Of a stretch of DNA of 64,000 nt, positions 1-53,316 are shown in pieces. This stretch comes from Candidatus Woesebacteria bacterium RIFCSPHIGHO2_02_FULL_42_20 (GTDB lineage Bacteria; Patescibacteriota; Microgenomatia; UBA8517), in the NCBI GenBank assembly GCA_001792535.1, contig MGGS01000002.1, positions 7,155 through 71,154 of the forward strand, given 5' to 3'. The translations under genes were made by a program, and so were the position numbers. Below the pieces are notes generated by a model. It saw only the letters and a list, made by a program, of their open reading frames with translations. It was not told where the DNA came from and searched no databases. Positions within the stretch are counted from its first letter, which is position 1; the number at the start of each line of letters is the position of its first letter.

Positions 1-23
1 AACGGTTAGCCTCACAGTATTAT

Positions 24-1631
24 TTGGCGGCTATACTCTTTGTTGCAAATTTTTTGTTTTTTAGTCGTATTCATGAACGCCACTTGTTGCCCTCTCTGGC
101 GTTTGTATCGATTGTCGCAGTCCTGGACTGGAAAATAATGGCTACCTACGTGGTTTTGTCTGCTACTTACGTTTTAAATACACTATATTCCTATACCTGG
201 ATAGTCGACGATTTTAAAAAGATTTTTTCGGATAACCTTATTAAGATATTTATTCTTGGTAACTTGGTATTTTTCGGTGGCCTGCTTGCCCGAAGTTTTA
301 AAAAGAAGGCCGCTCCTTTGCCCAGCATCAGAATACCTGCTATTTTGAAACTGAAGGCTAAAGAAATTAAGTTTAGCGATGTTACTAAAAAGACAACTAC
401 AAAGCTTTTAGTCTTAATTCTTTTGTTGTCGGCAGTCTCGAGAATTTTCTATTTGGATAGCCCGAAGAAGGATTACTTTGACGAAGTCTATCATGCCTTT
501 ACGGCCCGCCAGATGCTGGAGGGAAATAGTTTTGCTTGGGAATGGTGGAACGCTCACCCCGAAGGATTTGCATACGAATGGACACATCCTCCCATGGCAA
601 AGCTCATCATGGCTGCCGGAATGAGTCTGTTTGGGGAAAATCAACTTGGGTGGAGACTTCCCGGAGCCTTATTTGGAGTTATAGCTACGTTATTGGTGTT
701 TTTAGTCACTTTGTCGCTGTTTAAGAATCGAAGCGTCGCTTTGGTTGCCTCGCTTGTTTTTTCACTCGAGGGGTTGCCGCTGACTCTAAGCAGGATAGGA
801 ATGAATGACATTTACTTTCTTACATTTATGTTGCTTTCGATTTATTTATATATAAACGATAACCATTTTGTTTCCAGTTTGTCTTTGGGGATGGCCGCCG
901 CAAGCAAATGGAGTACTTTGTACGCTTTGCCGATTTTTTTAGTGGCCCACTTTGTCTTGAAGAAAAAAATAAAGCCCTCCTATTTGTGGTTTGCGGTTGT
1001 TCCTCCTCTGGTTTATGTGCTGGCCTACTCGCCGCTATTTTTGAGCGCGAAAATCCAAAGAGAGTACGTGGAAAATACAGCTTATAAGAGTCACATAAAT
1101 GAAAAAACCGGTGTGGTTCCGTTTGATATGTTTGTCGATACTCAAAAGCAAATGTGGTGGTATCATACCAGACTTAAAGCAACACACCCTTTTACTTCTC
1201 CCTGGTGGAGTTGGCCAGTGATGAGTCGGCCTGTTTGGGTTTATGGCGGGGAAGTGAAAAACGGCATAGTCAGCAACATTTACATAATGGGAAATCCGAT
1301 TGTTTTTTGGTTTGGTTTAGCCTCGGTGGCAATTTGTGGATATTATGCTTTTTCCGAGCGGAATAAAAAGCTGGGGTTGGTTGTTTTTTCCTATGTAATA
1401 TTTTTTGCGCCGTGGGCTGCAAGTCCGCGAATTATGTTTTTGTATCATTATCTGCCGTCAATTCCGTTTATGGCGATTGCAATCGGTTACGTTCTAAGAC
1501 GAAACCAAAAATATTTAATTCCGATGTTGGCGTTGTTTATTTTGAGCTTCGTTTATTTTTACCCGCGCTTTTCGGGTTTACCGGTTCCTGTTCAATTAAA
1601 CGAATCTTATAGATGGTTTGAAGGATGGTAA
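24..1631 (+). CDS. GT-C glycosyltransferase, PMT/ArnT-like (putative protein O-mannosyltransferase); frame open to window start so true 5' end may lie upstream
   Basis: 535-aa polytopic membrane protein; first extracytoplasmic loop carries the PMT/ArnT DE motif (KKDYFDEVYHAFTARQ) followed by many TM helices; no in-frame stop between nt 3 and 24. Confidence 0.6.
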   Translation: MAAILFVANFLFFSRIHERHLLPSLAFVSIVAVLDWKIMATYVVLSATYVLNTLYSYTWIVDDFKKIFSDNLIKIFILGNLVFFGGLLARSFKKKAAPLPSIRIPAILKLKAKEIKFSDVTKKTTTKLLVLILLLSAVSRIFYLDSPKKDYFDEVYHAFTARQMLEGNSFAWEWWNAHPEGFAYEWTHPPMAKLIMAAGMSLFGENQLGWRLPGALFGVIATLLVFLVTLSLFKNRSVALVASLVFSLEGLPLTLSRIGMNDIYFLTFMLLSIYLYINDNHFVSSLSLGMAAASKWSTLYALPIFLVAHFVLKKKIKPSYLWFAVVPPLVYVLAYSPLFLSAKIQREYVENTAYKSHINEKTGVVPFDMFVDTQKQMWWYHTRLKATHPFTSPWWSWPVMSRPVWVYGGEVKNGIVSNIYIMGNPIVFWFGLASVAICGYYAFSERNKKLGLVVFSYVIFFAPWAASPRIMFLYHYLPSIPFMAIAIGYVLRRNQKYLIPMLALFILSFVYFYPRFSGLPVPVQLNESYRWFEGW

Positions 1632-1634
1632 AGT

Positions 1635-2105
1635 TTATAACACTAATGCTATTGCGAAGATAAGCAGCAGTCCTCCAAGGCCGATGCCGATTAATGTCGG
1701 TGCAGCTATTCCGGCTTCGGGAAGTTCCGGTTGGGGTGTGGAATCTATCCCTCCGATCGGCGGTTGTGTAGGCGAATTTGTAGGTGTGTTAGTCGGGTTC
1801 GGCGTACTGGTTGCATTAGAGGTCGGCGTTGGAGTTGGCGACGACGTTGGCGTGCTTGTTGGTGTACCTGTCGGCGTTGGGGTGGAAAGCGTGAATGCCA
1901 ACTTGGTACAAGATCCGTATTCACAGGGTGTAGGCTGCGGCGTTTCGCCGAAGGCTTCTGGTTGGCTTGTCGGGGCGGTCGGCGCTACGGGTTCGCCTCT
2001 TAAACTGTAAAGTCTTAATGCCGTAAAGATTGCAACTCCTGCCAAGACGATGGTGGCGACGACGATAGCAAAGGTTAATCCGTTTTTCTTCAAAAAGTCT
2101 TTCAT
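1635..2105 (-). CDS. small secreted/anchored protein: N-terminal signal/TM, Pro/Thr-rich linker, C-terminal LPEAG + hydrophobic segment (sortase-signal-like)
   Basis: 156 aa; TPTPTGTPTSTPTSSPTPTPTS low-complexity tract shared with the next two genes; C-terminus ELPEAG then IAAPTLIGIGLGGLLLIFAIALVL; the overlapping + strand ORFs 1618-2010 and 1731-2003 look like antisense shadows. Confidence 0.5.
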   Translation of the reverse strand: MKDFLKKNGLTFAIVVATIVLAGVAIFTALRLYSLRGEPVAPTAPTSQPEAFGETPQPTPCEYGSCTKLAFTLSTPTPTGTPTSTPTSSPTPTPTSNATSTPNPTNTPTNSPTQPPIGGIDSTPQPELPEAGIAAPTLIGIGLGGLLLIFAIALVL

Positions 2106-2106
2106 A

Positions 2107-3369
2107 TCACATCCAAATGTCTAATTCATTATGATGGACTTGGGCGTATATTTCAAAACTGTAAACTCCGCTAGGGACTTCGTATATATAATAGAATTCC
2201 TCAGACCCTGGCCTTTTATCGGTCACTTCACCGTCCCAGTCTGTTGAATTAACCCTAAATCTTGCTTTATCCACCAGCCCTTGTGAAGTTGTACCCAAAA
2301 CTGTAAAGTAGATCTTATCCCCGCTTTCAAGGTTTTCCAGGTTGTCGTTGGTCAAGGCTGTCCAATTTGTGGCAACCGTTACACTTCCTGTTACCGAGTA
2401 AGCTTGGACTTGGCTACACCCGACTTCAATACAGGCGTTCGGAGGTGTACTTGTGGGAGTAGGTGTGGGGGTCGGTGTCGGGGTACTTGTTGGGGTACCT
2501 GTCGGCGTGGCGGTCGGTGTGCTGCAGTTTGGCGGGTAGTGTTCACCGGCTATTCTTCCGGTGCCCGTGACGTCGACGTACATCAGGGTAATATCGGGAG
2601 TAAGGTCTCCCTGCCATTCTTGTGTCGTGCTTTCGCCTGGGGTGAGCGAAAATTCTTTTTTAAAGTACGGATCAAACTGTTCGAAAATACCTGAAACGTT
2701 TTGATTGGATGTATTTTTGATGTAGCCCCCGCTACAGTCTACTTTGGTTTCAAGCTCCGGCGGTGCGGGTGTCTCTTTTGGCCCGTAGTTGCCACTGTCA
2801 CTGCAATCTTTTGACCCTATTACCTGCCAACTAAAACCGTCATCGGGGACAGAAACATTGCCCAATGTTGCGGAGTCTCCGGCGTTAAGATTTGGAACGT
2901 CAAGAGTTGCTACCTCTACCGAATTTATATAAATTTTTGCCAGTTGTAGCGGCTCATTGCGGTTTGACTCGTTTTTGACGGTGACTACACCGTCTTGGTT
3001 GACTTCAAAGTTGTATTTATCACAATCCCAGGCGCTTGTGCGAAATTGTGCAGGCTGTCTTACAAGTACCACTCCGGCACCAACCCCAAGCACAAGAAGT
3101 GCTATCCCCAGAATTGTCGCTAAAATTTTTGCTTTTGGCCTACCGTGTTCCGAGGAAGACTGTGTGTTATCAGCGATCACTGTATGGTTGTCATCCGGAG
3201 CAATATTGCCTTCTGCGAGATCAGCTACAGAGAGGGAAGCCGGTCCCGGCTGGTCAGTTGTATCCTGCTGTTGCTGATCGCTCTGTGGCGCGGTCGGCGG
3301 AGGCGTCATGAAACCGGCATTGTCCTGGTTAGTCATTTGATCTGTTGGTGGGGTTGTTTTGGGATCCAT
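2107..3369 (-). CDS. membrane-anchored extracellular protein with Q/T/D-rich N-terminus and Pro/Thr-rich linker; function unknown
   Basis: 420 aa; single TM (ILATILGIALLVLGVGAGVVLV); TATPTGTPTSTPTPTPTPTPTSTPP linker; start ATG overlaps upstream stop (TAATG). Confidence 0.55.
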   Translation of the reverse strand: MDPKTTPPTDQMTNQDNAGFMTPPPTAPQSDQQQQDTTDQPGPASLSVADLAEGNIAPDDNHTVIADNTQSSSEHGRPKAKILATILGIALLVLGVGAGVVLVRQPAQFRTSAWDCDKYNFEVNQDGVVTVKNESNRNEPLQLAKIYINSVEVATLDVPNLNAGDSATLGNVSVPDDGFSWQVIGSKDCSDSGNYGPKETPAPPELETKVDCSGGYIKNTSNQNVSGIFEQFDPYFKKEFSLTPGESTTQEWQGDLTPDITLMYVDVTGTGRIAGEHYPPNCSTPTATPTGTPTSTPTPTPTPTPTSTPPNACIEVGCSQVQAYSVTGSVTVATNWTALTNDNLENLESGDKIYFTVLGTTSQGLVDKARFRVNSTDWDGEVTDKRPGSEEFYYIYEVPSGVYSFEIYAQVHHNELDIWM

Positions 3370-4415
3370 TAATCTTTTATTTTTCTACCTACATAAACGC
3401 CTACCAAAAATAGGCTTACTCCCATGATAGGTGCGATAAAAACTGGTGTCAAGTCGCGAGATGGACCGTTTGCTTGTACTTGTTGCGTCTTTGATGGTGT
3501 AATTACCGAAAAAGAGCCGCTGCTGTCTTTATCGAGTTTCTCGAACATCGGCTCGGGAGTCGGTGTGCCAGTTGGGGTCGGGGCGACGGTTTCCTCTACC
3601 TGCTCACTTTCTTCAGTCGAAAACCCTGAAGGTTGGAACGTGTTTGCTGAAAGGTTGATCTTTGCTCTGGTTATTTCAGGCGGTGCGACAATTGATTTGT
3701 CTCTAAAGTCTTGAGCTTTTCCGATCACAATAGGCGGGATTGGGTTTATATTGTCGGCATCAACGTTAGCGGAAGCAATTCCTTCTAATCCGGCATGGAC
3801 AAAAATAGTAAGCTCGGGCTGCTCGCTGACCGTAAAGTAAGAAAGCAAATTTTCAGTTCTCGATATTGACAGGGGTACAAACCAGTTACCGCTTTCCGAA
3901 GTGGTTGTTGCAAGCGGACTCAGGTGATCCCCGGTTACAAGTACCAGCGCCTTTGCAACAGGCAGGCCGCTTTCGGTGGTAACCAAGCCCGAAATTATTT
4001 GAGAATGTTTGGGTGGTGGTTGCACCGGTGCCGTTTTAGTCAGCCAAAGATTGCCGGCATTGTCAAACTCTATTCCTCCCGAGATTATTTTAAATGAATA
4101 AGCCGTTTCCGGATGAAGGTTGGTGATGGTAATATAGTGGATCATCTCAAAACTTTGAGGGTTGTTACCTGTTACGTTTTCAAGTTGATTTGCTTTACCC
4201 CAGACTAAAAAATCACTTGTTTTTGTATTAGTAAGCCATGAAACAGTAAATGAGTTTTCGGTTATATTTGTAATCCTGACATCTTGTGGTGTAACTCCTT
4301 CCGGGACTTGCACCGAGTAGTCTCGAAAATAATTTATAAAGTAAAGTGCGCCGATGAAAACTACAAAAATGAGCGGTAGTGCCAAGACTGTAGGTATCTT
4401 GAAAGGTTTCCTCAT
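3369..4415 (-). CDS. membrane protein with fibronectin type III-like domain, PT linker and C-terminal TM + basic tail
   Basis: 348 aa; N-terminal TM; Fn3-like segment (TNITENSFTVSWLT...TAYSFKI); APTPTGTPTPEP linker; C-terminal IAPIMGVSLFLVGVYVGRKIKD. Confidence 0.55.
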   Translation of the reverse strand: MRKPFKIPTVLALPLIFVVFIGALYFINYFRDYSVQVPEGVTPQDVRITNITENSFTVSWLTNTKTSDFLVWGKANQLENVTGNNPQSFEMIHYITITNLHPETAYSFKIISGGIEFDNAGNLWLTKTAPVQPPPKHSQIISGLVTTESGLPVAKALVLVTGDHLSPLATTTSESGNWFVPLSISRTENLLSYFTVSEQPELTIFVHAGLEGIASANVDADNINPIPPIVIGKAQDFRDKSIVAPPEITRAKINLSANTFQPSGFSTEESEQVEETVAPTPTGTPTPEPMFEKLDKDSSGSFSVITPSKTQQVQANGPSRDLTPVFIAPIMGVSLFLVGVYVGRKIKD

Positions 4416-4418
4416 TTG

Positions 4419-4724
4419 TCAAACTTTTGACTCTTCGCTTACTTCTTCAGGTTCAACTGTTGCTGGCGGCGGTGCTTGAATTGGGACTGGCTCTATCTCA
4501 AATTTGTCTATTTCCTCTTCACTTAAATAAACTCTTCCCTGAAGTTTGTCCAATTGGGCCGCGTCCAGAGTGGGGTTAAGTTCTTTAAGAACCTCCGCGG
4601 GTACATCTGGATTTGGTTTGGCTATGACAATTCGTATAACTTCGAATCCGACCCATAAAATTGCCGTAATCAATGTCAAGGCCATAATTGTGACTAGTCC
4701 GGGTACTTTAATTCTTTTTCTCAT
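4419..4724 (-). CDS. small single-pass membrane protein (pilus-assembly accessory?)
   Basis: 101 aa; TM helix then acidic Pro-rich tail; translationally coupled to flanking genes (overlapping stop/start). Confidence 0.45.
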   Translation of the reverse strand: MRKRIKVPGLVTIMALTLITAILWVGFEVIRIVIAKPNPDVPAEVLKELNPTLDAAQLDKLQGRVYLSEEEIDKFEIEPVPIQAPPPATVEPEEVSEESKV

Positions 4725-5392
4725 TGTTGGGTGTCATCTCCTTCGTAGACGACTCTTCCTTTAATAGACAAAGATATCAAGTTGCCCTCAGCAGTTTCCC
4801 GTAAGCTAAAGTTTGTTTCGTCTAACCAGATAGGGCGTCTTAAACCCTCGACATTTTGAAGGAAGGTTACTAAGTCAGAGTAACTACCGTTGGCGGACAT
4901 GGTTACAGAAAAGCCTTTTGATCCGGCAGGAAGTGGGGCGAGTTCTTCGTTTCTGGATTTTTGTACCGACCCCTCGCTTCCCTTGAGAACTGTGCCTTCT
5001 ATTTTCAGATTTGTTAGCGTGACAGAATATTTGCTGGAAATCGAACTAATTTGCCGTATATAGTCTTCGACCTGTGCATTTTCGGGAACGGCAGTAGACA
5101 AAAGCAAAATCCGGTCCACTTCTTGGTTATAGAGGTCCTGGGCGAGACCTAAGTCCTCAGTTTTTTGTTTTAATGTAGTTAAAATAGTTTGTTTGGAATC
5201 TATGTCCTTTAGTATTTGTGTAATAGTAACAATCGTCGGCTTTAACGCGAAAATAACAAAGAATGTAACAGTTGCAAGAGACATGATTATCTCCAAAAAC
5301 GCTTTTACGTCGTCTCTGTTTTTGTAAACAGCAAAAAGATTCAAAAAGTACCGCTGATACCTTAAATAGTCTTTTCTCCAGCCCACTGCCAT
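4721..5392 (-). CDS. PilO-like type IV pilus inner-membrane assembly protein (tentative)
   Basis: 223 aa; short cytoplasmic N-terminus, one TM, coiled-coil segment, C-terminal ferredoxin-like region; directly follows the PilN-like gene with adjacent stop/start. Confidence 0.45.
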   Translation of the reverse strand: MAVGWRKDYLRYQRYFLNLFAVYKNRDDVKAFLEIIMSLATVTFFVIFALKPTIVTITQILKDIDSKQTILTTLKQKTEDLGLAQDLYNQEVDRILLLSTAVPENAQVEDYIRQISSISSKYSVTLTNLKIEGTVLKGSEGSVQKSRNEELAPLPAGSKGFSVTMSANGSYSDLVTFLQNVEGLRRPIWLDETNFSLRETAEGNLISLSIKGRVVYEGDDTQQ

Positions 5393-5983
5393 TTAGATAG
5401 TTCCTCCTTCATTTAATATTGAACTTATCGAAAATTCAATAAACGGCGACTCGTTTTTAGATGATACTTGGGTAAGTTTTACATCCTTTAGTTTGCCAGC
5501 CGAGTTTAAATTTGAAATTAGCTGGGCAATAGACTGCTCTGTAAAACTTGACCCTTGGATTCGCACTTCACTGTAGGTGAGGGTGATACTTTTAAGAAAA
5601 ACATCAGACGGAAGGTAGGGTGTGATATAGTTTTTTACTAAGTCAAATTGCGCAGGATTTGCGCTAAATTGCGAAAATACCCCGAGTTTTTTCTGTGTTT
5701 GTCTGAAGACTTTTTCAAAATTGCTATACGACTCCACAATTTCTTTTTGATTTTCAACCTCGTCAGTCAAGTCGCTAGAACGGATATCTAGCCAGAATCT
5801 GGATAGAAAGGCAATTATTACTACCATTTCCGTCAAGATGACAATCAATCTGAAAGTAGAGAGCACCCAGGCTAAGACACGGCCTGTGGTTGTCGTAGCA
5901 AATTGTTCTTGGGGCAGCAGATTTATTTCTTTAGTTTTTTTCTTTTGAGCAGCCATAATAGTATCCAATTTCCAATATAGCAC
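5393..5983 (-). CDS. PilN-like type IV pilus assembly protein
   Basis: 196 aa; N-terminal KEINLLPQEQ motif typical of the PilN cytoplasmic peptide, then one TM and a periplasmic-type domain; start may be GTG 5983 or internal ATG ~5956. Confidence 0.55.
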   Translation of the reverse strand: MLYWKLDTIMAAQKKKTKEINLLPQEQFATTTTGRVLAWVLSTFRLIVILTEMVVIIAFLSRFWLDIRSSDLTDEVENQKEIVESYSNFEKVFRQTQKKLGVFSQFSANPAQFDLVKNYITPYLPSDVFLKSITLTYSEVRIQGSSFTEQSIAQLISNLNSAGKLKDVKLTQVSSKNESPFIEFSISSILNEGGTI

Positions 5984-6010
5984 ATTAAAAGAGGTGAAAT
6001 AAATGAAGAA

Positions 6011-6286
6011 CTACCTCTTTTTGGGAGATTTGGATTTTTTGGCTGTGGGTCTTTTAGGCAACAACCTTGACAGCAAAGATTTTATATGCGCTGCCTTGTT
6101 TTTGTGGATTATTTTTTTCTTGGCCACACGGTCTACCATGGAAAAAGCTGCAATCAGATCCTTTTCTTTTTTACTTTTTCTGGCAGTTCTAAGCAATACT
6201 TCCAGTTTGGTGATGGACACTTTGTTATTGCTTTCCTTGCGTTTACTTGACCTCAGAGCTCTTTTTGCGGTTTTGGTTACCGGCAT
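6011..6286 (-). CDS. lysine-rich basic protein (histone H1-like / nucleoid-associated?), candidate first gene of the pil/surface operon
   Basis: 91 aa from ATG 6286; 30% Lys/Arg; purine-rich first codon positions (RNY); preceded by TTGAAA-17nt-TATACT-7nt-ATG (leaderless-type promoter); the longer track ORF to 6613 runs antisense into murJ and is rejected; the competing + ORF 6003-6293 is its antisense. Confidence 0.35.
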   Translation of the reverse strand: MPVTKTAKRALRSSKRKESNNKVSITKLEVLLRTARKSKKEKDLIAAFSMVDRVAKKKIIHKNKAAHIKSLLSRLLPKRPTAKKSKSPKKR

Positions 6287-6323
6287 GGCGTAAAGTATAA
6301 TTGACAATGTATCATATTTCAAC

Positions 6324-8027
6324 ATGGATAAGATAATAAAAAAAGGTAAGCAAATATTTTTCTCTCCGCAATCAAGTGTCATCTCTGCGGCAACGACAAT
6401 AATGCTGATGATAGTTGCTTCGAGAATTTTAGGGCTGGTAAGGCAGCGGGTACTCGCACATTTTTTTGTGCCCGAGGACTTATCGCTTTTTTTTGCTGCA
6501 TTTCGGCTTCCCGACCTGATTTTTGAAGTTCTTGTTTTTGGTACGTTTTCGTCGGCTTTTATTCCCGTTTTCACAAAATCGCTTAAAAAAGGTGAATCGG
6601 AAGCCTGGGACACGGCCGCAAGAGTGGTTAATATTGGTCTGATTATTTTTATACCCCTAGCTCTTATCTTTTCTTTTAAGGCAGATTTGGTTTATTCTTA
6701 TATGGCCCCAGGGTTTACGCTAGAGCAGACTCACACAATTGCCGCTATCGCGCGAGTTTTATTTGCTGCCCAGGCATTTTTTGTGGTTAGCTACGTGCTG
6801 ACGGGTGTTTTGGAATCGCTGAGGATTTTTCTTGTTCCGGCGCTCGCGCCGGTTTTTTATAACTTGGGGATAATTGCCGGAACAGTTGCTTTTTCGAATA
6901 GCCTTGGGCTTATGGCACCTGCTGTTGGTGTTCTTATTGGTGCGGCATTCCACTTTTTGATTCAGTTGCCTGCTTCAATTAAGTTGGGTTTTAGATTTGG
7001 CAGTCAGGTAAAGCCCAACGCTGACGTCAAGAAGATAGGCCGTCTTGCCCTACCAAGAGTTGTCGATTTGTCTTTCCAGCAAATTGCCAAGACGGTCGAG
7101 CTTTACTTTGCTTCGTTGCTGTCTGTGTCGAGTTACACGTATTTTACTTTTGCCAACACTTTACAGCTTTTGCCTGTTGGCCTTTTTGGTACTTCGGTTG
7201 CCAAAGCTGCGCTTCCGACTCTTGCAAGGATGGATAATGACTTGGAGAAATTTAGAAAAACCTTGTTTTCGGTATTCGCACAAATGGTGTTTTTAATTAC
7301 TCCACTTGCGGTTATGCTGATCGTTTTGCGTATCCCTTTTGTCCGTTTGGTCTACGGAACAGATATTTTTGGTTGGGAAGCAACGGTACAGACGGGAATG
7401 GTTTTGTCGGCCTTTGGTGTAGGGATTGTTTTTCAGGCTGCAACGGCTCTTTTTTCGCGTGCATTTTATGCGCTTCACGACACCAAAACTCCCGTTTTTG
7501 TGTCTATCGGTAGCATCTTTATTAACGTCGTTGCAAGTTTTTATTTCATCCGAGTTCTTGGTCTTGATATCTGGTCGCTTGCAGCGGCTTTTTCTCTGTC
7601 CACGACTGTTCAGTCGATTGTGCTTTTTTATATGCTGATTAAGAAGATTAATCACGCAAACACAAGGAGTCTTTTTCTACCCTTATTAAAGGTTTTAACT
7701 TCGGCTTCGGTTTCCGGGTTTGTGATGTATTTTTTGCTTAAGTTTTTTGATCGTTACACCTGGGTTAAACGCCTTTCGTTTTTGGGTAAGCTGGACGCCG
7801 AGCAAATCGCGTTTGAAAAATTTGTTCTTGACACACGCTATACTTTAAATCTGTTATTTCTGACTGTGGGCGTGAGCGTAATTGGCTTAGTGGTCTACGT
7901 TTTTGTGGCATGGTTACTAAGGTCTTACGAACTCAAAATTTTTGTGGGCTTAGTTAAAAGGTTTTTGTCGAAAAGTACCGCTCTGCGGGAGCCAATTACT
8001 GGCCCGGATGCTGATTCAATTTCTTGA
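6324..8027 (+). CDS. murJ: lipid II flippase MurJ (MviN)
   Basis: 567 aa, 14-TM profile; N-terminal ASRILGLVRQRVLAHFFV and FGTFSSAFIPVF signatures of MurJ/MviN. Confidence 0.9.
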   Translation: MDKIIKKGKQIFFSPQSSVISAATTIMLMIVASRILGLVRQRVLAHFFVPEDLSLFFAAFRLPDLIFEVLVFGTFSSAFIPVFTKSLKKGESEAWDTAARVVNIGLIIFIPLALIFSFKADLVYSYMAPGFTLEQTHTIAAIARVLFAAQAFFVVSYVLTGVLESLRIFLVPALAPVFYNLGIIAGTVAFSNSLGLMAPAVGVLIGAAFHFLIQLPASIKLGFRFGSQVKPNADVKKIGRLALPRVVDLSFQQIAKTVELYFASLLSVSSYTYFTFANTLQLLPVGLFGTSVAKAALPTLARMDNDLEKFRKTLFSVFAQMVFLITPLAVMLIVLRIPFVRLVYGTDIFGWEATVQTGMVLSAFGVGIVFQAATALFSRAFYALHDTKTPVFVSIGSIFINVVASFYFIRVLGLDIWSLAAAFSLSTTVQSIVLFYMLIKKINHANTRSLFLPLLKVLTSASVSGFVMYFLLKFFDRYTWVKRLSFLGKLDAEQIAFEKFVLDTRYTLNLLFLTVGVSVIGLVVYVFVAWLLRSYELKIFVGLVKRFLSKSTALREPITGPDADSIS

Positions 8028-8074
8028 CACTAAGACTTGACAACTTGTTAGCACTCGTGGTATATAAGTGCTAA
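8024..8074 (+). promoter_or_regulatory. sigma70-type promoter overlapped by a CIRCE operator (HrcA binding site) for hrcA-grpE-dnaK-dnaJ
   Basis: TTGACA (8037-8042), 17-18 nt, TATATA (8061-8066); inverted repeat TTAGCACTC-N9-AAGTGCTAA at 8048-8074 = CIRCE consensus TTAGCACTC-N9-GAGTGCTAA with one mismatch; lies 39 nt upstream of hrcA. Confidence 0.8.
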
Positions 8075-8112
8075 CCCTTCGACTAATGCTCAGGGTAAAT
8101 TAATATAATTAT

Positions 8113-8844
8113 ATGAAGGATAATTTGACGGCAAGACAGCTGCAATTACTTAAAGTTATTGTCGACGAGTATATCGAATCGGCCGAGCCCGTCGGGTCCC
8201 AAGTTATTGAAAAGAAATACTCACTTGGAATCTCATCGGCAACTATCAGAAACGAGATGGGCGAGCTGGTCGACAAAGGCTTTTTAAAACAACCTCACAC
8301 GTCAGCCGGTCGGGTTCCCACTCCAAAAGCGATGAAGTTTTATATAAGCCAGCTAATGGAAGAAAAACACCTTAGCTTGACCGACGAAGTTCGTGCAAAA
8401 GAAGAGGTATCTTCTTATAAAGGAAACGTCGACAGGATTATTAATGAGGCTACTCACGGACTGGCACGGAGAACTGGGGCATTGGCCGTTTCGGCACTGG
8501 ATGACGGAAGCACTTGGCACGCTGGCTATGCGAGCCTTTTCGGTAATCCCGGATTTTCGGATATGGCTGTGTGCCGAAGTGTATTCGGGTTAATTGAAGA
8601 AAGTAAAAGAATACACGAACTTTTTTTTGAAAGGCTTGAGTCTGGGTCACCGGTTGAGGTTTTGTTTGGCGAGGAGCTCGGCTGGAGATTTTTTGAACCA
8701 GTCGGGGTGGTCGCGAGGCAATTTACTGCGGGCGGGAAAACCGGTGCGATTGGTGTCATTGGCCCGTTGGGATTTGATTATCCGTATATAATACCTACTG
8801 TCAGATATTTCGGTGATCTTATCGAGGAGCTGTCCCTTCAATGA
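8113..8844 (+). CDS. hrcA: heat-inducible transcription repressor HrcA (short form)
   Basis: 243 aa; N-terminal winged-helix LTARQLQLLKVIVDEYIESAEPVGS; C-terminal IGPLGFDYPYIIP motif; stop overlaps grpE start (ATGA). Confidence 0.85.
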   Translation: MKDNLTARQLQLLKVIVDEYIESAEPVGSQVIEKKYSLGISSATIRNEMGELVDKGFLKQPHTSAGRVPTPKAMKFYISQLMEEKHLSLTDEVRAKEEVSSYKGNVDRIINEATHGLARRTGALAVSALDDGSTWHAGYASLFGNPGFSDMAVCRSVFGLIEESKRIHELFFERLESGSPVEVLFGEELGWRFFEPVGVVARQFTAGGKTGAIGVIGPLGFDYPYIIPTVRYFGDLIEELSLQ

Positions 8845-9317
8845 AGAAAGACAAAAAAAGTAAAGATTCGGTGAGCGAGCTCAAGGGACAGCTGGCAAGG
8901 GCTTTGGCTGATTACGATAATTTAAGGAAAAGGGCCGACGAGGAAAAAGATGCACTTTTCAAGTATTCGAGTCAGCGGATAATAGCCGGGCTTTTGCCGA
9001 TTTTGGATATGCTGGAGGCTGCCCAAAAGCATATTAACGATCAAGGTTTGGCGATAGCGATCAAGGAATTTAAAGATTTACTGAGAGAGGAGGGCGTCGA
9101 AGTCATTCCGGCGGGACAAGGTGAGGCTTTTGACGAAGACACACAAGACGTCATAGAAGTTGTCGAAGGTGGAGAGCACGGAAAGATTAAAGAGGCTGTG
9201 CTGGCTGGTTATCGATTTGCCGACGGCCACGTAATAAGGCATGCTAAAGTGAAAGTATACGGTGGATTGACAGAAAGTAAAAAAGGCGAGAATATGAAAA
9301 AGGAGAATAAGGATTAA
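8841..9317 (+). CDS. grpE: nucleotide exchange factor GrpE
   Basis: 158 aa; [19 protein letters not shown] coiled-coil and [16 protein letters not shown]-terminal beta domain. Confidence 0.9.
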
Positions 9318-11243: not shown

Positions 11244-12119
11244 GTGGCTGCGGCAAAGGCAGATTACTACAATATTCTGGGAGTTTCAAAAGGCGCGAGC
11301 GCTGACGAACTCAAAAAAGCTTACCGAAAGCAAGCTTTAGAGTGGCACCCTGACCGGCATAAAGACGATAAGGAAGCAGCAGAAAAGCGATTCAAAGAGA
11401 TAAACGAAGCTTACCAAGTGCTGTCTGATCCTAAAAAGAAACAGGCTTATGACCAGTTTGGTCACCAGGCTTTTACTCAGGGTGGGGGTTTTGGCGGAGG
11501 AAGCCCTTTTGGCCAAGCGGGCCAATACGGGCCGTTTACTTATACTTACACGACAAACGGCGGCGGGGGAAATCCGTTTGCCAGTTTTGATTTTGGCGAC
11601 CCTTTTGACATTTTCGAACAGTTTTTTGGGGGCGGCTCACCATTCCGCCGGGCTAGAGCCAAGCCACGTTACAGTATCTCGGTTGATTTTGAGGATGCCG
11701 TGAAGGGAGTCGCCAAAGAGGTTCAGATAGAGGGTAAAAAAAGAAAGATAAAAATTCCAGCCGGAGTCGATGACGGGTCCAGAATAGAATTTGACGACTT
11801 TATTCTGTCGATTAATGTACGGCCAGATCCCAGGTTTGAGCGCGATGGCGCGGATATTTATTTTAGAGAAAGTATTGGGTTTACAACCGCGGCTCTGGGC
11901 GGGGAGATAGAGGTGCCAACTGTTGACGATACCGTGAAGTTGCGAATCCGCCCCGGGACAAATTCGGGGACGATGATTCGGCTTCGCGGCAAAGGCATGC
12001 CACATCTTCGCGGAGGCGGCCGCGGCGACCAATATGTCAGGATTTCGGTTACGGTTCCCGAAAAACTTTCCCGAGAACAAAAAAATCTTTTGGAAGAACT
12101 TCGAGAAGAAGGGTTATAA
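11244..12119 (+). CDS. dnaJ: J-domain co-chaperone, DnaJ/CbpA-like (type II: J domain + G/F region + C-terminal domains, no CxxCxGxG zinc finger)
   Basis: 291 aa; GTG start overlapping dnaK TAG; [32 protein letters not shown] with HPD motif; Gly/Phe-rich region; no cysteine-repeat zinc finger. Confidence 0.85.
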
Positions 12120-12128
12120 TTTGACTCA

Positions 12129-12770
12129 ATGGACTATTCAAAAATAGGAAATTCTAAAGATTTTTTGAATTTTCTTAAATATCAATACACTCCAAAACCG
12201 GGAAAAGTTCAGATACTTAAATTACCAGAGAGACATTATTTAACTTTCGACGGCAAAGGTGAATCGAAAGCCCCGCCCTTTCAAGAAGCAATTCAATGTC
12301 TCTATGCAACTGCTTACACCTTAAAAATGGGTATGAAGTTCGGAAAATTGACAAAACCTGACGGCTATTTTGATTATAAAGTTCCGGCTCTGGAAGGACT
12401 ATGGTGGTTTAAAAAAGGGAAGTTTGTCATGGGTGCAAACCTCAAAAACATCTTTTGGAAACTTATCATAATGACTCCGGCTTTTATTACCAAAGACCTA
12501 GTTGATGCTGCCAAGAAACAGGCCAAAGAAAAAAAGCAAGAGTTACCGATAGAAAAAGTTAATTTTGAAACCTTTGACGCCAAAAAGGTTATTCAGACTT
12601 TACACATCGGTCCTTACAATAAAGAAGAGGCTGCCGTCAATTTACTTCATGAGTTCGCAAAAGAAAAAGGCTTTAAAATTGCAGGACGTCACCACGAAAT
12701 TTATATGTCCGATCCTCACAAGACTCCTGAATCAAAATTAAAAACGATAATCAGATATCAAGCAATTTAA
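12129..12770 (+). CDS. GyrI-like small-molecule-binding (AraC effector-domain-like) protein
   Basis: 213 aa; C-terminal pattern HIGPYNKEEAAVNLLHEFAKEKGFKIAGRHHEIYMSDPHKTPESKLKTII matches GyrI-like fold consensus (EIYlsDP...T pE.LkT). Confidence 0.6.
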   Translation: MDYSKIGNSKDFLNFLKYQYTPKPGKVQILKLPERHYLTFDGKGESKAPPFQEAIQCLYATAYTLKMGMKFGKLTKPDGYFDYKVPALEGLWWFKKGKFVMGANLKNIFWKLIIMTPAFITKDLVDAAKKQAKEKKQELPIEKVNFETFDAKKVIQTLHIGPYNKEEAAVNLLHEFAKEKGFKIAGRHHEIYMSDPHKTPESKLKTIIRYQAI

Positions 12771-12876
12771 TTTCCATTTTTTGAGGGTAATTACTATTAA
12801 TGGCATTTTTTGAAATAATGTAAGAAATAAAGATCATATTGATTTAATCCTAACTCAGGATAATCTAACTTTTGAT

Positions 12877-13713
12877 TTACACTACTCTCCAGTTTATTAT
12901 GCCTTTAATTGATCTTAACCAATCTTCAAGTTTACCCAAATCCGGTTTGTCAAAACTTTTGTTGTCGTTAATAAATTTAACTAATTTGTCATTTACTTTA
13001 CCTTCACGGTTGATTAGCAATTCCCCGGAATCTAATTGAGATAGCAAAGCCTCTGGTAAATCAAAAGTATCAGCAACATCTACTAAAGAAAATTTTCCTG
13101 TTTTAGGGTCATAAAAAATATTATCTGTGGAAAGAACTCCATAATTTAAGTCGGGTAAAAAATGATCTCTATTAAGTAAGTCAATGAGATCTTTTGCAAG
13201 AAGCTTCAGGTTGTTAATCGAACTAGGATTGTTATCCGAAAGTTGACTTAGAATTGACAATTCGTATTCCTGTTCTCCTAAAGCACTATTTGAATTTGGA
13301 AAAACTCTGCGAATTAGATCACCATCTGCTTCTTTTTGTATAAAAAAATGTTTATATGATCCATTATCTAAACTCACCGTACACACTTGCGTTGGAGGAA
13401 TATTAAAATGTTTGTACTGTTTCATATGTTGAAAACGATCCGAAATATATAAACCATATTCTTTAGTCGACTTTTCAGGAGGACGTTGATACCACGGTGC
13501 TGTTTCGGTAGGAAGAATTTTAAATCTGGGGTTATCTGGGTGAGATGTTGTCAGTTCTTGGGTATCTACAACCACCTTAACAAAATAGTTTCCTTCCAAT
13601 TTGGCATCATGTATTTTATATGTTTCACTGCGAGTTCCTGTATTAAATACCGGTTCAAGTTGACGAATATTTTGTATGATTATGTCGCCATACATTTGAA
13701 CGTGAGGTTCCAA
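12877..13713 (-). CDS. hypothetical protein (possible kinase-like fold), in an AT-rich segment
   Basis: 278-aa ORF; weak resemblance to APH/kinase C-lobe (FSLVDVADTFDLPEA); flanked by AT-rich intergenic DNA. Confidence 0.45.
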   Translation of the reverse strand: MEPHVQMYGDIIIQNIRQLEPVFNTGTRSETYKIHDAKLEGNYFVKVVVDTQELTTSHPDNPRFKILPTETAPWYQRPPEKSTKEYGLYISDRFQHMKQYKHFNIPPTQVCTVSLDNGSYKHFFIQKEADGDLIRRVFPNSNSALGEQEYELSILSQLSDNNPSSINNLKLLAKDLIDLLNRDHFLPDLNYGVLSTDNIFYDPKTGKFSLVDVADTFDLPEALLSQLDSGELLINREGKVNDKLVKFINDNKSFDKPDLGKLEDWLRSIKGIINWRVV

Positions 13714-43661: not shown

Positions 43662-43940
43662 ATGAAAATAGTAACGATATCTTCAAAAAGACAAATGACT
43701 ATTCCAAGGAGCTATTTGGAAGTGCTGGGTCTGGAGTCTTATGGAAAGGCAATTTTGGAAAAAGAAAAGGACAAAGTGGTAATTAGGCCCATGAAAGGGT
43801 CGGTAGTAGATCAGGTTGCCGGGAGCCTTCGAGGATACGTTAGACCATCTTTACTGGGTAAAAGCGTAGAAGAAATAAACAAGGAGGCTGGGGAGGCTTA
43901 TACAAAATACCTGGCGAAAAAATTTAAGCTTATCAAATGA
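43662..43940 (+). CDS. AbrB/MazE (SpoVT-AbrB) family antitoxin
   Basis: 92 aa; MKIVTISSKRQMTIPRSYLEVLGLE swapped-hairpin signature. Confidence 0.75.
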   Translation: MKIVTISSKRQMTIPRSYLEVLGLESYGKAILEKEKDKVVIRPMKGSVVDQVAGSLRGYVRPSLLGKSVEEINKEAGEAYTKYLAKKFKLIK

Positions 43941-44323
43941 TAACTTGCGTATTTGATACAAATGTACTGCTTCGTCTTTTTCTGAGAGACATTGAAAGTC
44001 AGTTTTTAGAAACGACTAGAGTATTAAAAGAGATTGAAGATGAAAAATCTACAGGAAAACTTTCAGCATTGGTTGTTGCAGAAACAATTTGGACATTTGA
44101 AAGTGTTTATAAATTAAACAGAAAGATAGTTATTGAGAAACTCCTTAGTTTAGTTGCATTAAAAAATATTAAGATCATTGAAGTAAAAAAAGACGTTCTT
44201 GTGGAAATCCTAAAAAGAATGATTGGAAACAAATTAGATTTTGTGGATGTTTATCTTTCCAAGATTGCCACCAAAAAAGAGATTTTTTCTTTTGACCGTG
44301 ACTTCAAAAAACTGTACAGATAA
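43937..44323 (+). CDS. vapC: PIN-domain toxin VapC
   Basis: 128 aa; N-terminal CVFDTNVLL; ATGA overlap with antitoxin gene. Confidence 0.8.
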   Translation: MITCVFDTNVLLRLFLRDIESQFLETTRVLKEIEDEKSTGKLSALVVAETIWTFESVYKLNRKIVIEKLLSLVALKNIKIIEVKKDVLVEILKRMIGNKLDFVDVYLSKIATKKEIFSFDRDFKKLYR

Positions 44324-47935: not shown

Positions 47936-48307
47936 TTATTTGTACTTGGAATGAGTTTTTAGAAGCTTCTTGTCAAAGCTTTTAAGCTGAGATTTTGAGT
48001 TAAGGACCTCGGCTAGTAATAACGAGTCGTAAAAACTTACCCTTTCATTTTTATAAATATTGAGAGACAAAGGCACGAAAGATGAAGTTGAAACGTTGGG
48101 CTGCTTTATCAAGGAAATTAAAACATTACACAACTCTTTTTTGTTTGCCTTGTAGTGTGTCTCAAGAATATAAACTACTTCAGCCAGTACAATATTGGCA
48201 ATATAAATTTTGTCATTTTCAATAATTTTCTTTGCGGTTTCTGCTTGGACTTTTATATCTTTGGTTAGAAAGCGGACGAGGTAGTTTGTGTCCAGGTATG
48301 TAGCCAT
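47936..48307 (-). CDS. PIN-domain toxin (VapC-like)
   Basis: 123 aa; MATYLDTNYLVRFL N-terminal acidic-residue strand; C-terminal SFYDSLLLAEV. Confidence 0.75.
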   Translation of the reverse strand: MATYLDTNYLVRFLTKDIKVQAETAKKIIENDKIYIANIVLAEVVYILETHYKANKKELCNVLISLIKQPNVSTSSFVPLSLNIYKNERVSFYDSLLLAEVLNSKSQLKSFDKKLLKTHSKYK

Positions 48308-50506: not shown

Positions 50507-52642
50507 ATGAGTTTGATTAAATTTGGCTTAAAAGAAGCCGACAAAGAGCATTACTGGACCTTAATAATTGAAGAAGGCTGGGTCCAGAGTGCCATTTGGA
50601 AAATTGACGAAAAAGACGAGGAGGCACAGGTTGTTTCATTTAGCTCTCCTGTTCGCTTCGAAAGCGATGATGACTTGGTTGAAACCGTTGATACTTCTCT
50701 TTCGGCTACAATTCAAAGCTTACCCAAGGAATTCCCTGAGCCGTCAAAAACTGTTTTTGGGGTACCTTCCTCATGGGTGAACAATGGTCAAATAGTGCCG
50801 GAGCACTTGGAGAAAATAAGGCACATCTGCTCAAAGCTTTCCTTAGCACCTACCGGATTCGTCGTACTGTCTGAAGCTATTGCGTTTTTAACTAAGACAC
50901 AAGAAGGTTCTCCGCTAAGTGCCGTGGTAATTGGCCTGACAGCTACAAGCCTTGAACTAAGCATTTTTAAGCTTGGCAAGTTGATTGGCAATACCAAGGT
51001 GGCTCGAAGTGTATCTTTATTTGACGACGCGGTTGAAGGTGTTTCGCGCTTTACTGACGGGATGCCTTTGCCTTCGCGGTTTTTAGTTTATGACGGTAAA
51101 GAGGGCGAAATGGATGAGGCCAAAGAAGCGCTTATTTCTGCTGACTGGTCAGCTAATACTTCTGATAAGGTTAAATTTATTCACTCTCCCAAAGTTGAAA
51201 CAGTGAGTGTTAATGATAAGATTCTGGCAGTTTCGTTGGCTGGTTCTTCTGAGATCGGAAAAGTGAAAAGTGTCATAATGACGGGCATAAAAAGCGAAGA
51301 TGCGGAGGAAAAGGTTGAAGTAACCGATGTGGTAAGTAATATCCGTGAAAACGAAATTACAGCAGGCGACTTGGGATTTGTAAATGATGAAGATGTTGTT
51401 ATCGAGGAAAAAATTCCCGTCTCTGAAACCAAAGTCCATAAAGTAACACCGAAATTTAAAAATCCGTTCGCTTTTCCGAAGTTTAAGGTGAGCTCGGGCG
51501 GATCGTCCGGTAAAAAAATGCTAATCGTCGGGTTTTTACTGTTTTCTGTGATTATTATAGGTCTTACTTTGGCTTGGTGGTTTTTACCTAAGGCAACAGT
51601 CACCATTTTTGTCTCCCCCAAAACCTTGCAGGAAAAAGACACCATCTCAATAGATATAAATGCAACGGGGGCCAATCTGGAGGCGAAAGTTATTCCCGGC
51701 AGAATAGAAAAAGTCAAGGTAGATGGTAGTAAAACAAAGTCGGTAACAGGTACCAAAGTTGTTGGTGATAAAGCTAAAGGAACCGTCAAAGTCAGAAACG
51801 GCACGCCGACCGACGTCAGTTTTGCCGCCGGTACCGTTATGGAAGGGCCGAATGGGTTAAAGTTCGGCCTAGATGAGTCGGTGTCGGTTTCAAGCGCAAT
51901 TTCGCCGACTTTACCGGGGACAGAAAATGTTTCGGTTACTGCCGAAGCCATTGGTTCGGAATATAACTTGGCTAAGGACGAAACGTTTAAAATGAGTAAT
52001 TATCCGAAAAGTGAGATTGACGCGGTTGGTGAGGCCGATTTTTCTGGAGGTAGTAGCCGTGAAATTTCGGCTGTTTCGCAAGATGATGTTGAGCAGCTTG
52101 AGAAGAGTTTAACGGATGAACTTGAAGATCAGGCCGAAGAAAAAATGATGGCTACGCTTGCTGCGGACGAAAGTTTTATCGAAGGCACTGTGACTTCGAG
52201 TGTTGCCGAGAGGGAGTTTGATCATAAAGTCGGGGACGAGGCTGCAAGTGTCGAACTGTCTTTGTCATTGGAAGTAAGCGCTTTAGTCGTGGACAGCATC
52301 GACTTAGATGGCCTTGCATCAAAGCTTTTGGAAGACCAGACCCCTCAAGGATTTTTGTTCAGAAATGAACAAGTGGATAAGACTTTTAAATTAGAAGGTC
52401 AGAGCAATGGTGTTTATAAGGTTACGATTAGCTTTGTGGCCAATCTTTTGCCCAATCTTAAAGTAGACGAAATTGCGAGTAAAATTTCGGGTAAGTATAC
52501 GGACGTGGCAAGCAATTATTTGCAAACGATACCAGGATTTAAAAAAGCCCAAATCAGTATTAACCCGAGGTTCCCTGGTAAGCTTGGTACTTTACCAAAT
52601 GTAAAAAATAATATATCAATAGAGATCTCTGCGAGTAAGTAA
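50507..52642 (+). CDS. membrane protein: N-terminal actin-like (PilM/FtsA-like) cytoplasmic domain, one TM, ~370-aa extracellular domain
   Basis: 711 aa; TVFGVPSSWVNNGQIVPEHLEKIRHICSKLSLAPTGFVVLSEAIAFL resembles actin/Hsp70-fold connect motif; TM MLIVGFLLFSVIIIGLTLAWWF at ~aa 335. Confidence 0.45.
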   Translation: MSLIKFGLKEADKEHYWTLIIEEGWVQSAIWKIDEKDEEAQVVSFSSPVRFESDDDLVETVDTSLSATIQSLPKEFPEPSKTVFGVPSSWVNNGQIVPEHLEKIRHICSKLSLAPTGFVVLSEAIAFLTKTQEGSPLSAVVIGLTATSLELSIFKLGKLIGNTKVARSVSLFDDAVEGVSRFTDGMPLPSRFLVYDGKEGEMDEAKEALISADWSANTSDKVKFIHSPKVETVSVNDKILAVSLAGSSEIGKVKSVIMTGIKSEDAEEKVEVTDVVSNIRENEITAGDLGFVNDEDVVIEEKIPVSETKVHKVTPKFKNPFAFPKFKVSSGGSSGKKMLIVGFLLFSVIIIGLTLAWWFLPKATVTIFVSPKTLQEKDTISIDINATGANLEAKVIPGRIEKVKVDGSKTKSVTGTKVVGDKAKGTVKVRNGTPTDVSFAAGTVMEGPNGLKFGLDESVSVSSAISPTLPGTENVSVTAEAIGSEYNLAKDETFKMSNYPKSEIDAVGEADFSGGSSREISAVSQDDVEQLEKSLTDELEDQAEEKMMATLAADESFIEGTVTSSVAEREFDHKVGDEAASVELSLSLEVSALVVDSIDLDGLASKLLEDQTPQGFLFRNEQVDKTFKLEGQSNGVYKVTISFVANLLPNLKVDEIASKISGKYTDVASNYLQTIPGFKKAQISINPRFPGKLGTLPNVKNNISIEISASK

Positions 52643-52644
52643 AT

Positions 52645-53316
52645 ATGCGAAGAACTCTGTCAAAAATTGCATCGGTTATTTTGGGTTTGGTGGGGATTTT
52701 TATGCTTGCCTCTACTCTCTTTCCGATTTTTTCGTACGAAATCTCAACACGCGATACCTTTTCCAATTATTTGTCTCCTGTTCCCGAAGGCGATATGGTA
52801 ATATTTGAAGCGTCGGGGGATGATCTGACTTTGGCGAGCAACTGGTTTGAAGGTGGGGCTGCGAGAGAAGATTTTGCCAATGTCGGTAACATTGACTATT
52901 ATACACTTTCTATCCCAAAGTTTGGAATTGAAAACGCGACTGTGTCCGTCGGCGGGGAAGACTTAGCCGAAAGCTTAATCCAGTATCCGGGTACTGCTCT
53001 TCCCGGGAAAATGGGGAATACTGTAATTTTTGGCCACTCGATTCTGCCTCAATTTTTTAACCCCAAAAGCTATCTATCAATTTTCTCCAGGCTGCCCGAG
53101 CTTAAAAAAAATGACGAGATAGAGGTTTATTATGATGGCATAGCTTATCTTTATAGAGTTGTAGATTTGGTGGAAGTAGATCCGGATAATTTAAATGTGT
53201 TGGAACAGCGATGGGGAGATGCATTTTTGAGTCTTGTCACTTGTGTCCCCCCGGGAGACCCCAGAAAACCCAGAAGACTAGTTGTTAGGGCAAAAGTAGT
53301 TCCTCCAGAAAAATGA
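52645..53316 (+). CDS. sortase (transpeptidase)
   Basis: 223 aa; N-terminal TM anchor; TLSIPKFGI, VIFGHS (catalytic His), SLVTCVPPG (TLxTC catalytic Cys), RLVVRA (conserved Arg). Confidence 0.75.
   Translation: MRRTLSKIASVILGLVGIFMLASTLFPIFSYEISTRDTFSNYLSPVPEGDMVIFEASGDDLTLASNWFEGGAAREDFANVGNIDYYTLSIPKFGIENATVSVGGEDLAESLIQYPGTALPGKMGNTVIFGHSILPQFFNPKSYLSIFSRLPELKKNDEIEVYYDGIAYLYRVVDLVEVDPDNLNVLEQRWGDAFLSLVTCVPPGDPRKPRRLVVRAKVVPPEK

Follow-up and report, generated by a model that had tools for sequence, protein, structure and literature searches.

The window analysed here is a 64,000-nt stretch of DNA from an uncultivated, ultra-small bacterium of Candidatus Woesebacteria (Microgenomates, Candidate Phyla Radiation (CPR)/Patescibacteria). 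The subject of this report is a minus-strand chain of seven genes near its start, comprising rpsT, pilN, pilO and four genes for accessory proteins of 101, 348, 420 and 156 aa (p101, p348, p420 and p156), together with the plus-strand gene facing the chain, which encodes a GT-C glycosyltransferase of the protein O-mannosyltransferase (PMT) type. PilN and PilO are a bitopic pair that forms the cytoplasmic-membrane alignment complex of type IV pili, and these pili are thought to be central to the attachment of CPR/Patescibacteria to host cells and to feeding on them. To our knowledge, CPR bacteria have no flagella and generally possess type IV pili. The cluster is a vertically conserved set of cell-envelope genes of Woesebacteria.

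Organisation, conservation and coding potential of the cluster

The features of the locus are listed below, with profile scores given in bits against the Pfam gathering cutoff (GA) or the model's own cutoff; TM denotes a transmembrane helix and PT a Pro/Thr-rich segment.

6011-6286, minus strand: rpsT (ribosomal protein S20), first gene of the chain (PF01649; TIGR00029 38.7 bits, cutoff 33)
5393-5956, minus strand: pilN, bitopic (PF05137 40.8 bits, GA 22.8)
5912-5926, minus strand: INLLP motif of PilN, invariant in 10 species
4721-5392, minus strand: pilO, bitopic (PF04350 24.6 bits, GA 22)
4419-4724, minus strand: p101, small bitopic protein with a Pro/Glu-rich tail (no family match)
3369-4415, minus strand: p348, N-terminal TM, Fn3-like region, C-terminal TM and basic tail (fn3 PF00041 34.3 bits, GA 25)
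3546-3581, minus strand: short PT stretch of p348
2107-3369, minus strand: p420, TM, beta-sandwiches and PT linker (weak CARDB match)
2437-2523, minus strand: PT linker of p420, disordered in the structural model
1635-2105, minus strand: p156, N-terminal membrane helix, Cys pair, PT linker, LPEAG and hydrophobic end (supported by orthologues)
1818-1892, minus strand: PT linker of p156
1710-1724, minus strand: LPEAG sortase-type pentapeptide of p156, read from the sequence
1-1631, plus strand: C-terminal 542 of 831 codons of the two-module GT-C glycosyltransferase (PF02366, PF13231, PF16192)
480-485, plus strand: Asp-Glu pair of the PMT loop-1 FDEV motif (D449/E450 of the full protein), aligned to yeast Pmt1
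6294-6322, minus strand: sigma-70-like promoter match TTGAAA-17-TATACT upstream of rpsT (consensus scan only)
6324-8027, plus strand: MurJ lipid II flippase, divergent neighbour (profile searches)
52645-53316, plus strand: sortase (PF04203, E 6e-23)

Read directly from the DNA, pilN and pilO abut (TAAATG), pilO and p101 overlap by 4 nt (ATGA), p101 and p348 are separated by 3 nt, p348 and p420 overlap by 1 nt (TAATG), and p420 and p156 lie 1 nt apart. An initial annotation of this DNA had described seven genes chained throughout by overlapping or abutting stop and start codons; the chain and its coordinates stand, but the first gene is rpsT, which is separated from pilN by a gap of 54 nt. A sigma-70 consensus scan found no promoter match comparable to that of rpsT in the rpsT-pilN interval, and an Rfam scan of window positions 1-9000 returned no RNA family. 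Each of the six non-ribosomal proteins carries one N-terminal hydrophobic helix, and p348 and p156 have a second one at the extreme C-terminus. Among all open reading frames (ORFs) of the window, PT linkers occur in p156, p420 and p348 only, exactly the three minus-strand genes to which the initial annotation had assigned them, and over 62 nt the linkers of p156 and p420 are 76% identical. Near the N-terminus, directly ahead of the membrane helix, p101 and p348 both have a K-[I/V/T]-P-[G/S/T]-[L/I/V] motif, and a helix end of the form G-x-x-L-[V/T]-[R/Q/K]-Q recurs in p348, p420 and some relatives; these motifs may represent a common anchor module or recognition site.

Gene order was compared across 11 related loci from a genome scan and 80 loci kept from 477 confirmed in a metagenome scan. 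For the census, loci were collapsed to 71 distinct PilN groups at 95% identity, with the lineages having enough flanking sequence as denominators. In this synteny comparison, which the initial annotation had proposed as a check, the order MurJ (divergent), S20-PilN-PilO-p101-p348-p420-p156 recurs in 71 distinct lineages. S20 lies upstream of pilN in 64 of 66 lineages, and MurJ is divergent from rpsT in all 43 that could be scored. PilO (52/52) and p156 (21/21) are always present, p101 is present in 40 of 42, p348 in 32 of 33 and p420, counting any part of it, in 19 of 21. The tight coupling of start and stop codons is kept in relatives at 30-50% amino-acid identity. The middle of the operon is modular: locus L013 lacks p348, in L018 and L019 the gene at the p420 position is split or has been replaced, one lineage carries several smaller genes there, and domains have been gained or lost. 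The closest named homologues of the window proteins belong to Candidatus Woesebacteria.

The public gene call for the source contig departs from this layout at two points, with a plus-strand ORF of 130 aa (1618-2010) in place of p156 (1635-2105, minus strand) and one of 96 aa (6003-6293) in place of rpsT (6011-6286, minus strand); as antisense ORFs are annotated at both sites, p156 and rpsT are missing from the contig's precomputed protein set. Orthologues of p156 are nevertheless found on the operon strand in every related lineage, with the frame and both termini kept (at least 8 species; 21/21 lineages with flank); the N-terminal helix (…GVAIFTAxRLYQLR) is conserved, as is the C-terminus. 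Relative to the closest orthologue (L004), substitutions number 17/7/44 and 9/3/19 at codon positions 1/2/3. The antisense ORF is Gly/Val low-complexity and conserved in the closest relative only, and in relatives the gene callers picked the operon strand. Because orthologues keep frame and termini and substitutions are mostly at third positions, p156 is judged to be a real gene and the plus-strand ORF 1618-2010 its antisense shadow. The initial annotation had itself raised the opposite reading, in which the PT-rich minus-strand ORFs are artefacts and the plus-strand ORFs 1618-2010 and 1731-2003 are the real genes; the public call favours it, but it is rejected on orthologue conservation and the codon-position pattern, and deserves practically no credence.

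The assignment of PilN and PilO to their families is solid, since the Pfam cutoffs are passed and the best or only relatives in PDB are themselves PilN and PilO. PilN starts with MAAQKKKTKEINLLP, with KEINLLP at residues 9-15 and a TM at about 27-58; its profile finds M. xanthus PilN (3jc8) as best PDB match, and of its more than 2000 relatives, those named in their source are annotated as PilN. The invariant INLLP is presumably a PilM-docking peptide, as in the PilM:PilN of Thermus and Pseudomonas. PilO has one TM and its gene abuts the pilN stop codon; a profile built from 20 orthologues matches only PilO chains in PDB (3jc8, E 1.7e-7; 5uvr; 2rjz). A profile-profile comparison of PilO with PilN orthologues was not significant. 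Both the PilN-like call, with its KEINLLP motif, and the PilO-like call of the initial annotation are thus borne out, and all profile searches named there as checks (PilN, PilO, PMT_2 and fn3) scored above the gathering cutoffs.

Accessory proteins, sorting signals and the facing glycosyltransferase

AlphaFold2 models of p348 and p420 were built from 35 and 26 sequences, respectively, taken from database homologues. That of p348 has a TM helix, two confident beta-sandwiches (residues 44-240; predicted local distance difference test (pLDDT) >90 over most of 41-240), a disordered spacer (243-322) and a C-terminal helix. Foldseek returned only tandem Fn3 arrays for it, down to E 8e-7, and a weak CarboxypepD_reg match accompanies Fn3 in the profile search; p348 is the Fn3-like gene with a C-terminal TM and basic tail of the initial annotation, and its tail reads GRKIKD. 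Its orthologues usually have ~440 aa and an extra Big_13 domain. The model of p420 comprises a disordered cytoplasmic N-terminus of 77 aa, a TM (78-107), a confident CARDB-like sandwich, a weakly predicted variable domain, the disordered PT linker and a confident, conserved C-terminal sandwich (313-420); only the TM, the CARDB-like domain and the C-terminal domain are common to relatives. In PDB it matches generic folds of the Ig, CARDB or Fn3-like kind, with an archaeal type IV pilin (8fk7) as a weak top match in Foldseek (E 1.5e-3, TM-score 0.49). As the prepilin motif is absent, we attribute this match between model and pilin to the shared layout of a helix plus a sandwich.

The possibility that p101, p348, p420 or p156 are type IV pilins was considered and rejected: none matches PF07963 or has the conserved Gly -1/Glu +5, and p420 in addition has the 77-aa disordered leader, whereas the pilin of the Peptoclostridium locus L017 does match PF07963. 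For p101, a conserved juxtamembrane segment and, in many orthologues, a PT/PS-rich tail were found, and the family, clustered at 50% identity, has 447 representatives, nearly all of those listed being 65-136 aa long; no relative was found in Pfam, NCBIfam or PDB. The top match of an exhaustive p101 search, P0197 (2009 aa), was discarded as a spurious sum over 23 tandem repeats (…KTNPDLAAELLKKTDPALTSAQIAELY…) and not homology. One divergent p101 relative sits on a 619-bp contig.

In the L018 operon, a dockerin-like membrane protein and a cohesin-like protein are encoded (11324-12124; 12708-13550), both from Pfam matches below threshold (E 2e-3 and 1.9e-3, respectively), and the cohesin-like protein ends in VPESG and a hydrophobic segment. 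Among the database homologues of the p420 C-terminal domain, some (P0013, P0022, P0014) also possess a cohesin or SLH domain. The L018 pair hints that members of the operon bind each other, and these domain assignments suggest a cellulosome-style docking among the surface proteins.

As stated in the initial annotation for the last gene of the chain, p156 ends in ELPEAG and a hydrophobic segment, here counted at 24 residues, with no basic tail. It is the only protein of the window with LPx[T/A/S]G and a hydrophobic C-terminus; the LPXTG-like signal proposed there is kept across species, and a sortase gene lies in the window. Among 22 family members scanned, the motif is LPxAG in 15, VPxSG in 3, LPxSG in 2, LPxTG in 1 and FPxSG in 1, followed by xxxPT and ~20 hydrophobic residues. 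In the p348 family, the usual C-terminus consists of [T/V/I/Q/L]Px[S/A/T]G-xLTxTL followed by a TM and a Lys/Arg tail, and 27 members of the p348 size class have the basic tail. In the p348 of the window and of its sister L004, the pentapeptide (now GPSRDLTPVF) and Big_13 have been lost, and the TM and basic tail are kept (window 3369-3470).

The N-terminal hydrophobic stretches (~21-28 residues, no Ala-X-Ala site) look like anchors rather than cleavable signal peptides, so that a sortase-processed protein would tie the membrane to the wall. The sortase of the window has the His (FGHS), Cys (LVTC) and Arg residues, its best PDB matches are class C sortases, and it is a candidate for processing signals of the LPxAG type. 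Two nt upstream of its gene, a 711-aa protein is encoded (50507-52642, plus strand) with a marginal Baseplate_J match (22.7 bits, GA 21.1) and no LPxTG-like C-terminus.

The facing glycosyltransferase matches PF02366 (47 bits, GA 22.7), PF16192 (72-73 bits, GA 32.4) and PF13231 (45-56 bits, GA 26.1), and its YFDEVYHA aligns to VVFDEVHFG of yeast Pmt1 (PDB 6p25). The PMT-family membership and DE loop motif claimed by the initial annotation hold, but its start at position 24 does not: the ORF is open to the window edge, with no stop codon before that position, and the gene is truncated there. The full protein has 831 aa (source contig ENA ERZ4903137 k141_2427171, 123.8 kb, L001 11739-14234; 761-832 aa in relatives) and is a fusion in which an N-terminal module that is GT-C-like (~390 aa, with an acidic loop of its own, LELDQNTF) precedes the GT39 module. 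No polyprenol-phosphate-mannose (donor) synthase was identified in the window. Pmt mannosylates PT-rich exported proteins in Actinobacteria.

A convergent GT39 PMT gene was found within 10 kb in 14 of the 19 lineages with enough flank, and the other five have PMT_2/PMT-type or DUF2298 GT-C genes directly after the p156 gene and co-directional with it. The stop codons of p156 and PMT are 3 nt apart in the window (1629-1637), and in 11 of 17 lineages their distance is between -4 and +8 nt; the related loci concerned are L004, L008, L014, L018, L020, L036, L062, L078, L089 and L098. With the stops so close, there is no room for terminators and the two transcripts must overlap, which could allow antisense interference. 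The association of the operon with GT-C enzymes is stronger than simple adjacency; the cautions are that synteny in the clade extends over the entire region and that CPR genomes are rich in glycosyltransferases, with 29 in genome Ch65 (PMC7143001).

Beyond PMT, relatives have an LCP (LytR_cpsA_psr) gene and encode a conserved polytopic protein of ~385 aa, and the 355-aa counterpart in the organism of the window (L001 15333-16400) has no Pfam match. In two relatives, a TMEM260-like GT-C protein is encoded in the same region (L018 17231-18658; L019 19179-20606); TMEM260 is a second type of protein O-mannosyltransferase, known from animals.

The rest of the window holds housekeeping genes: HrcA-GrpE-DnaK-DnaJ, SecA, class I lysyl-tRNA synthetase, NusA-IF2, PNPase, RNase J, FtsK and rpoBC. 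The class I lysyl-tRNA synthetase (PF01921; 26709-28277, minus strand) is of a type that archaea and CPR often have, in agreement with the taxonomic assignment. Two PIN-domain genes lie among the housekeeping genes (43937-44323, plus strand; 47936-48307, minus strand) and are possibly toxin components.

Interpretation of the cluster and alternative explanations

The reading favoured here, to which we give about an even chance, is that the cluster encodes a form of the type IV pilus alignment complex elaborated specifically in Woesebacteria and composed of PilN/PilO and four membrane-anchored, partly wall-sorted and probably O-glycosylated proteins. We infer the physical association of the six proteins, the sortase processing, the glycosylation and the link to pili, and the glycosylated pilus-associated surface apparatus predicted by the initial annotation is partly supported and plausible. 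In such an arrangement, PilN and PilO would form the membrane base and connect to PilM, PilB and PilC encoded elsewhere in the genome. The four accessory proteins would project outward from this base and, through sortase, anchor it in the peptidoglycan, taking the place of the diderm PilP/PilQ in a monoderm, secretin-less cell. Their PT spacers would be O-mannosylated by the neighbouring PMT during Sec translocation, and thereby stiffened and protected. A more specific version, tentative and rather doubtful, sees the accessory proteins as the outer part of the monoderm CPR pilus machine, that is, a membrane-anchored, O-mannosylated collar or conduit nucleated on PilN/PilO and linked to the wall by sortase, which guides the fibre through peptidoglycan and surface layer (S-layer) and replaces PilP/PilQ in this lineage, its glycosylation being encoded in the locus itself.

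According to the literature, CPR as a whole are enriched in components of type IV pili, among them PilM, PilN and PilO, PilQ is absent, and sortase is near ubiquitous in Microgenomates (PMC6744442). In Saccharibacteria, PilMNO lie within pilus loci (PMC11623550), and the single pilus locus of a complete Microgenomates genome lists PilM, not PilN/PilO (PMC7143001). Nothing specific to Woesebacteria was found in the literature on pili.

Several observations weigh against the favoured reading. Pilus core genes were searched for with Pfam on the large ORFs of the window, and by tblastn with Pfam-verified Peptoclostridium (L017) queries in the window and 99 related loci. Neither PilM, PilB, PilC, PilT or PilD nor a pilin was found anywhere in the 64 kb of the window or, across ~935 kb of related loci, at a distance of up to 10 kb from the cluster. 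The initial annotation had noted the absence of PilM, PilB and PilC from the operon; across the window and the ~935 kb of related loci, pilN is likewise not encoded with pilM and other pilus core genes. Moreover, the flagellar cage of H. pylori shows that homologues of PilN/PilO can be co-opted for a machine other than a pilus (PMC10823254). The four accessory proteins have no relative of known function and their folds are generic Ig/Fn3, the p348 copy of the window lacks the sorting motif that its orthologues carry, and a basic C-terminal tail was found in 0 of the 22 p156-family members scanned. The PMT scores 81 bits against the NCBIfam equivalog NF058602, far below its cutoff of 800, and is therefore a distant GT39 member rather than a proven orthologue. 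Finally, the neighbourhood of HrcA-GrpE-DnaK-DnaJ, MurJ, LCP and UvrD is equally syntenic in the clade, so that adjacency by itself is weak evidence of functional coupling.

That last point is also the starting point of one alternative, which we regard as unlikely but deserving of real weight: there would be no dedicated apparatus, pilN-pilO lying by chance upstream of fast-evolving surface proteins or adhesins, and PMT being a housekeeping enzyme adjacent by inheritance. Besides the equal synteny of the flanking housekeeping genes, the modular and variable middle of the operon (L013, L018, L019) and the many glycosyltransferases of CPR genomes, such as the 29 of Ch65, are in keeping with it. 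Chance placement is harder to reconcile with overlapping or abutting start and stop codons that persist across lineages at 30-45% amino-acid identity, or with the co-occurrence of p101, p348 and p156 with PilN/PilO in nearly every lineage. Nor does mere inheritance of PMT sit well with another GT-C gene occupying the position where the GT39 gene is missing, and with p156/PMT stops that remain within -4 to +8 nt of each other in 11/17 lineages.

In the other alternative, PilN/PilO would have been co-opted and, with PilM or another actin-like partner, would scaffold an envelope complex that builds no fibre; a wall or S-layer tether, or a host-attachment structure made of beta-sandwich proteins, would be examples. 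The cluster is never near pilus core genes and always among cell-wall genes (MurJ, GT-C enzymes, LCP), wall-sorted proteins follow PilO in place of the minor pilins of the monoderm locus L017, and the PilM/N/O of the H. pylori flagellar cage provide a precedent (PMC10823254). However, PilN, PilO and PilM are widespread and enriched in CPR (PMC6744442), so that the simplest expectation is that the pair serves the pili of the genome. The invariant INLLP fits a canonical PilM partner, and no alternative machine was identifiable in the neighbourhood of the cluster; we consider co-option improbable.

The cluster provides four strongly conserved candidate proteins for the passage of a pilus fibre, in a cell without secretin, through a Gram-positive-like wall and S-layer. 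A predicted variant of the sortase signal (LPxAG without basic tail) comes with it, as does a candidate system for O-mannosylation in a phylum whose protein glycosylation is unexplored. Across a whole class, PilN/PilO can be uncoupled genomically from PilM, PilB and PilC, which annotation pipelines and surveys of pilus presence or absence must take into account, and public gene calls are wrong at two points of the locus, where antisense ORFs stand for rpsT and p156.

Comparison with known systems

The type IVa PilM-PilN-PilO(-PilP-PilQ) systems of Pseudomonas, Myxococcus and Thermus resemble the cluster in their adjacent, coupled and bitopic PilN/PilO with INLLP, and envelope genes follow pilO in the operon here as pilP/pilQ do there. 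In the Woesebacteria cluster, however, pilM is not adjacent, there is neither a PilP lipoprotein nor a secretin, as expected of monoderm CPR, rpsT heads the operon, and the products of the downstream genes are unrelated to PilP/PilQ, being Ig/Fn3-like and bitopic, with PT linkers and signals of the sortase type. Monoderm type IV pilus (T4P) loci, such as those of Clostridia (Peptoclostridium L017) and T4P-1 and T4P-2 of Saccharibacteria, share the secretin-less PilN/PilO and a Gram-positive-like envelope. Their pilM-pilN-pilO genes are encoded with pilB, pilT, pilC, pilD and pilins, followed by N-methyl minor pilins, and in L017 it is N-methyl pilins that come after PilO, whereas the PilN/PilO described here stand apart from these genes in every lineage examined. 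The PilM/PilN/PilO of the H. pylori flagellar cage are alike in being homologues encoded away from pilus genes, although their operon includes pilM and no wall-sorted proteins.

As regards glycosylation, the closest parallel is the actinobacterial Pmt (M. tuberculosis Rv1002c, Streptomyces, Corynebacterium), which acts on Pro/Thr-rich regions of Sec-exported proteins. The Woesebacteria enzyme agrees with it in the GT39 domains PMT and PMT_4TMC, in the Asp-Glu pair of loop 1 and in lacking a MIR domain, and candidate substrates with TPTPT linkers are encoded next to it. It differs in being an 831-aa fusion with an extra N-terminal GT-C-like module, known from its sequence and far below the equivalog cutoff. 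Finally, LPXTG/sortase anchoring is matched in the [L/V/I]Px[T/S/A]G motif, the hydrophobic C-terminal end, the sortase of the same genome and the basic tail of p348 orthologues, while the p156 family departs from it in lacking that tail, in preferring Ala at position 4 (LPxAG) and in carrying anchor-like N-termini.

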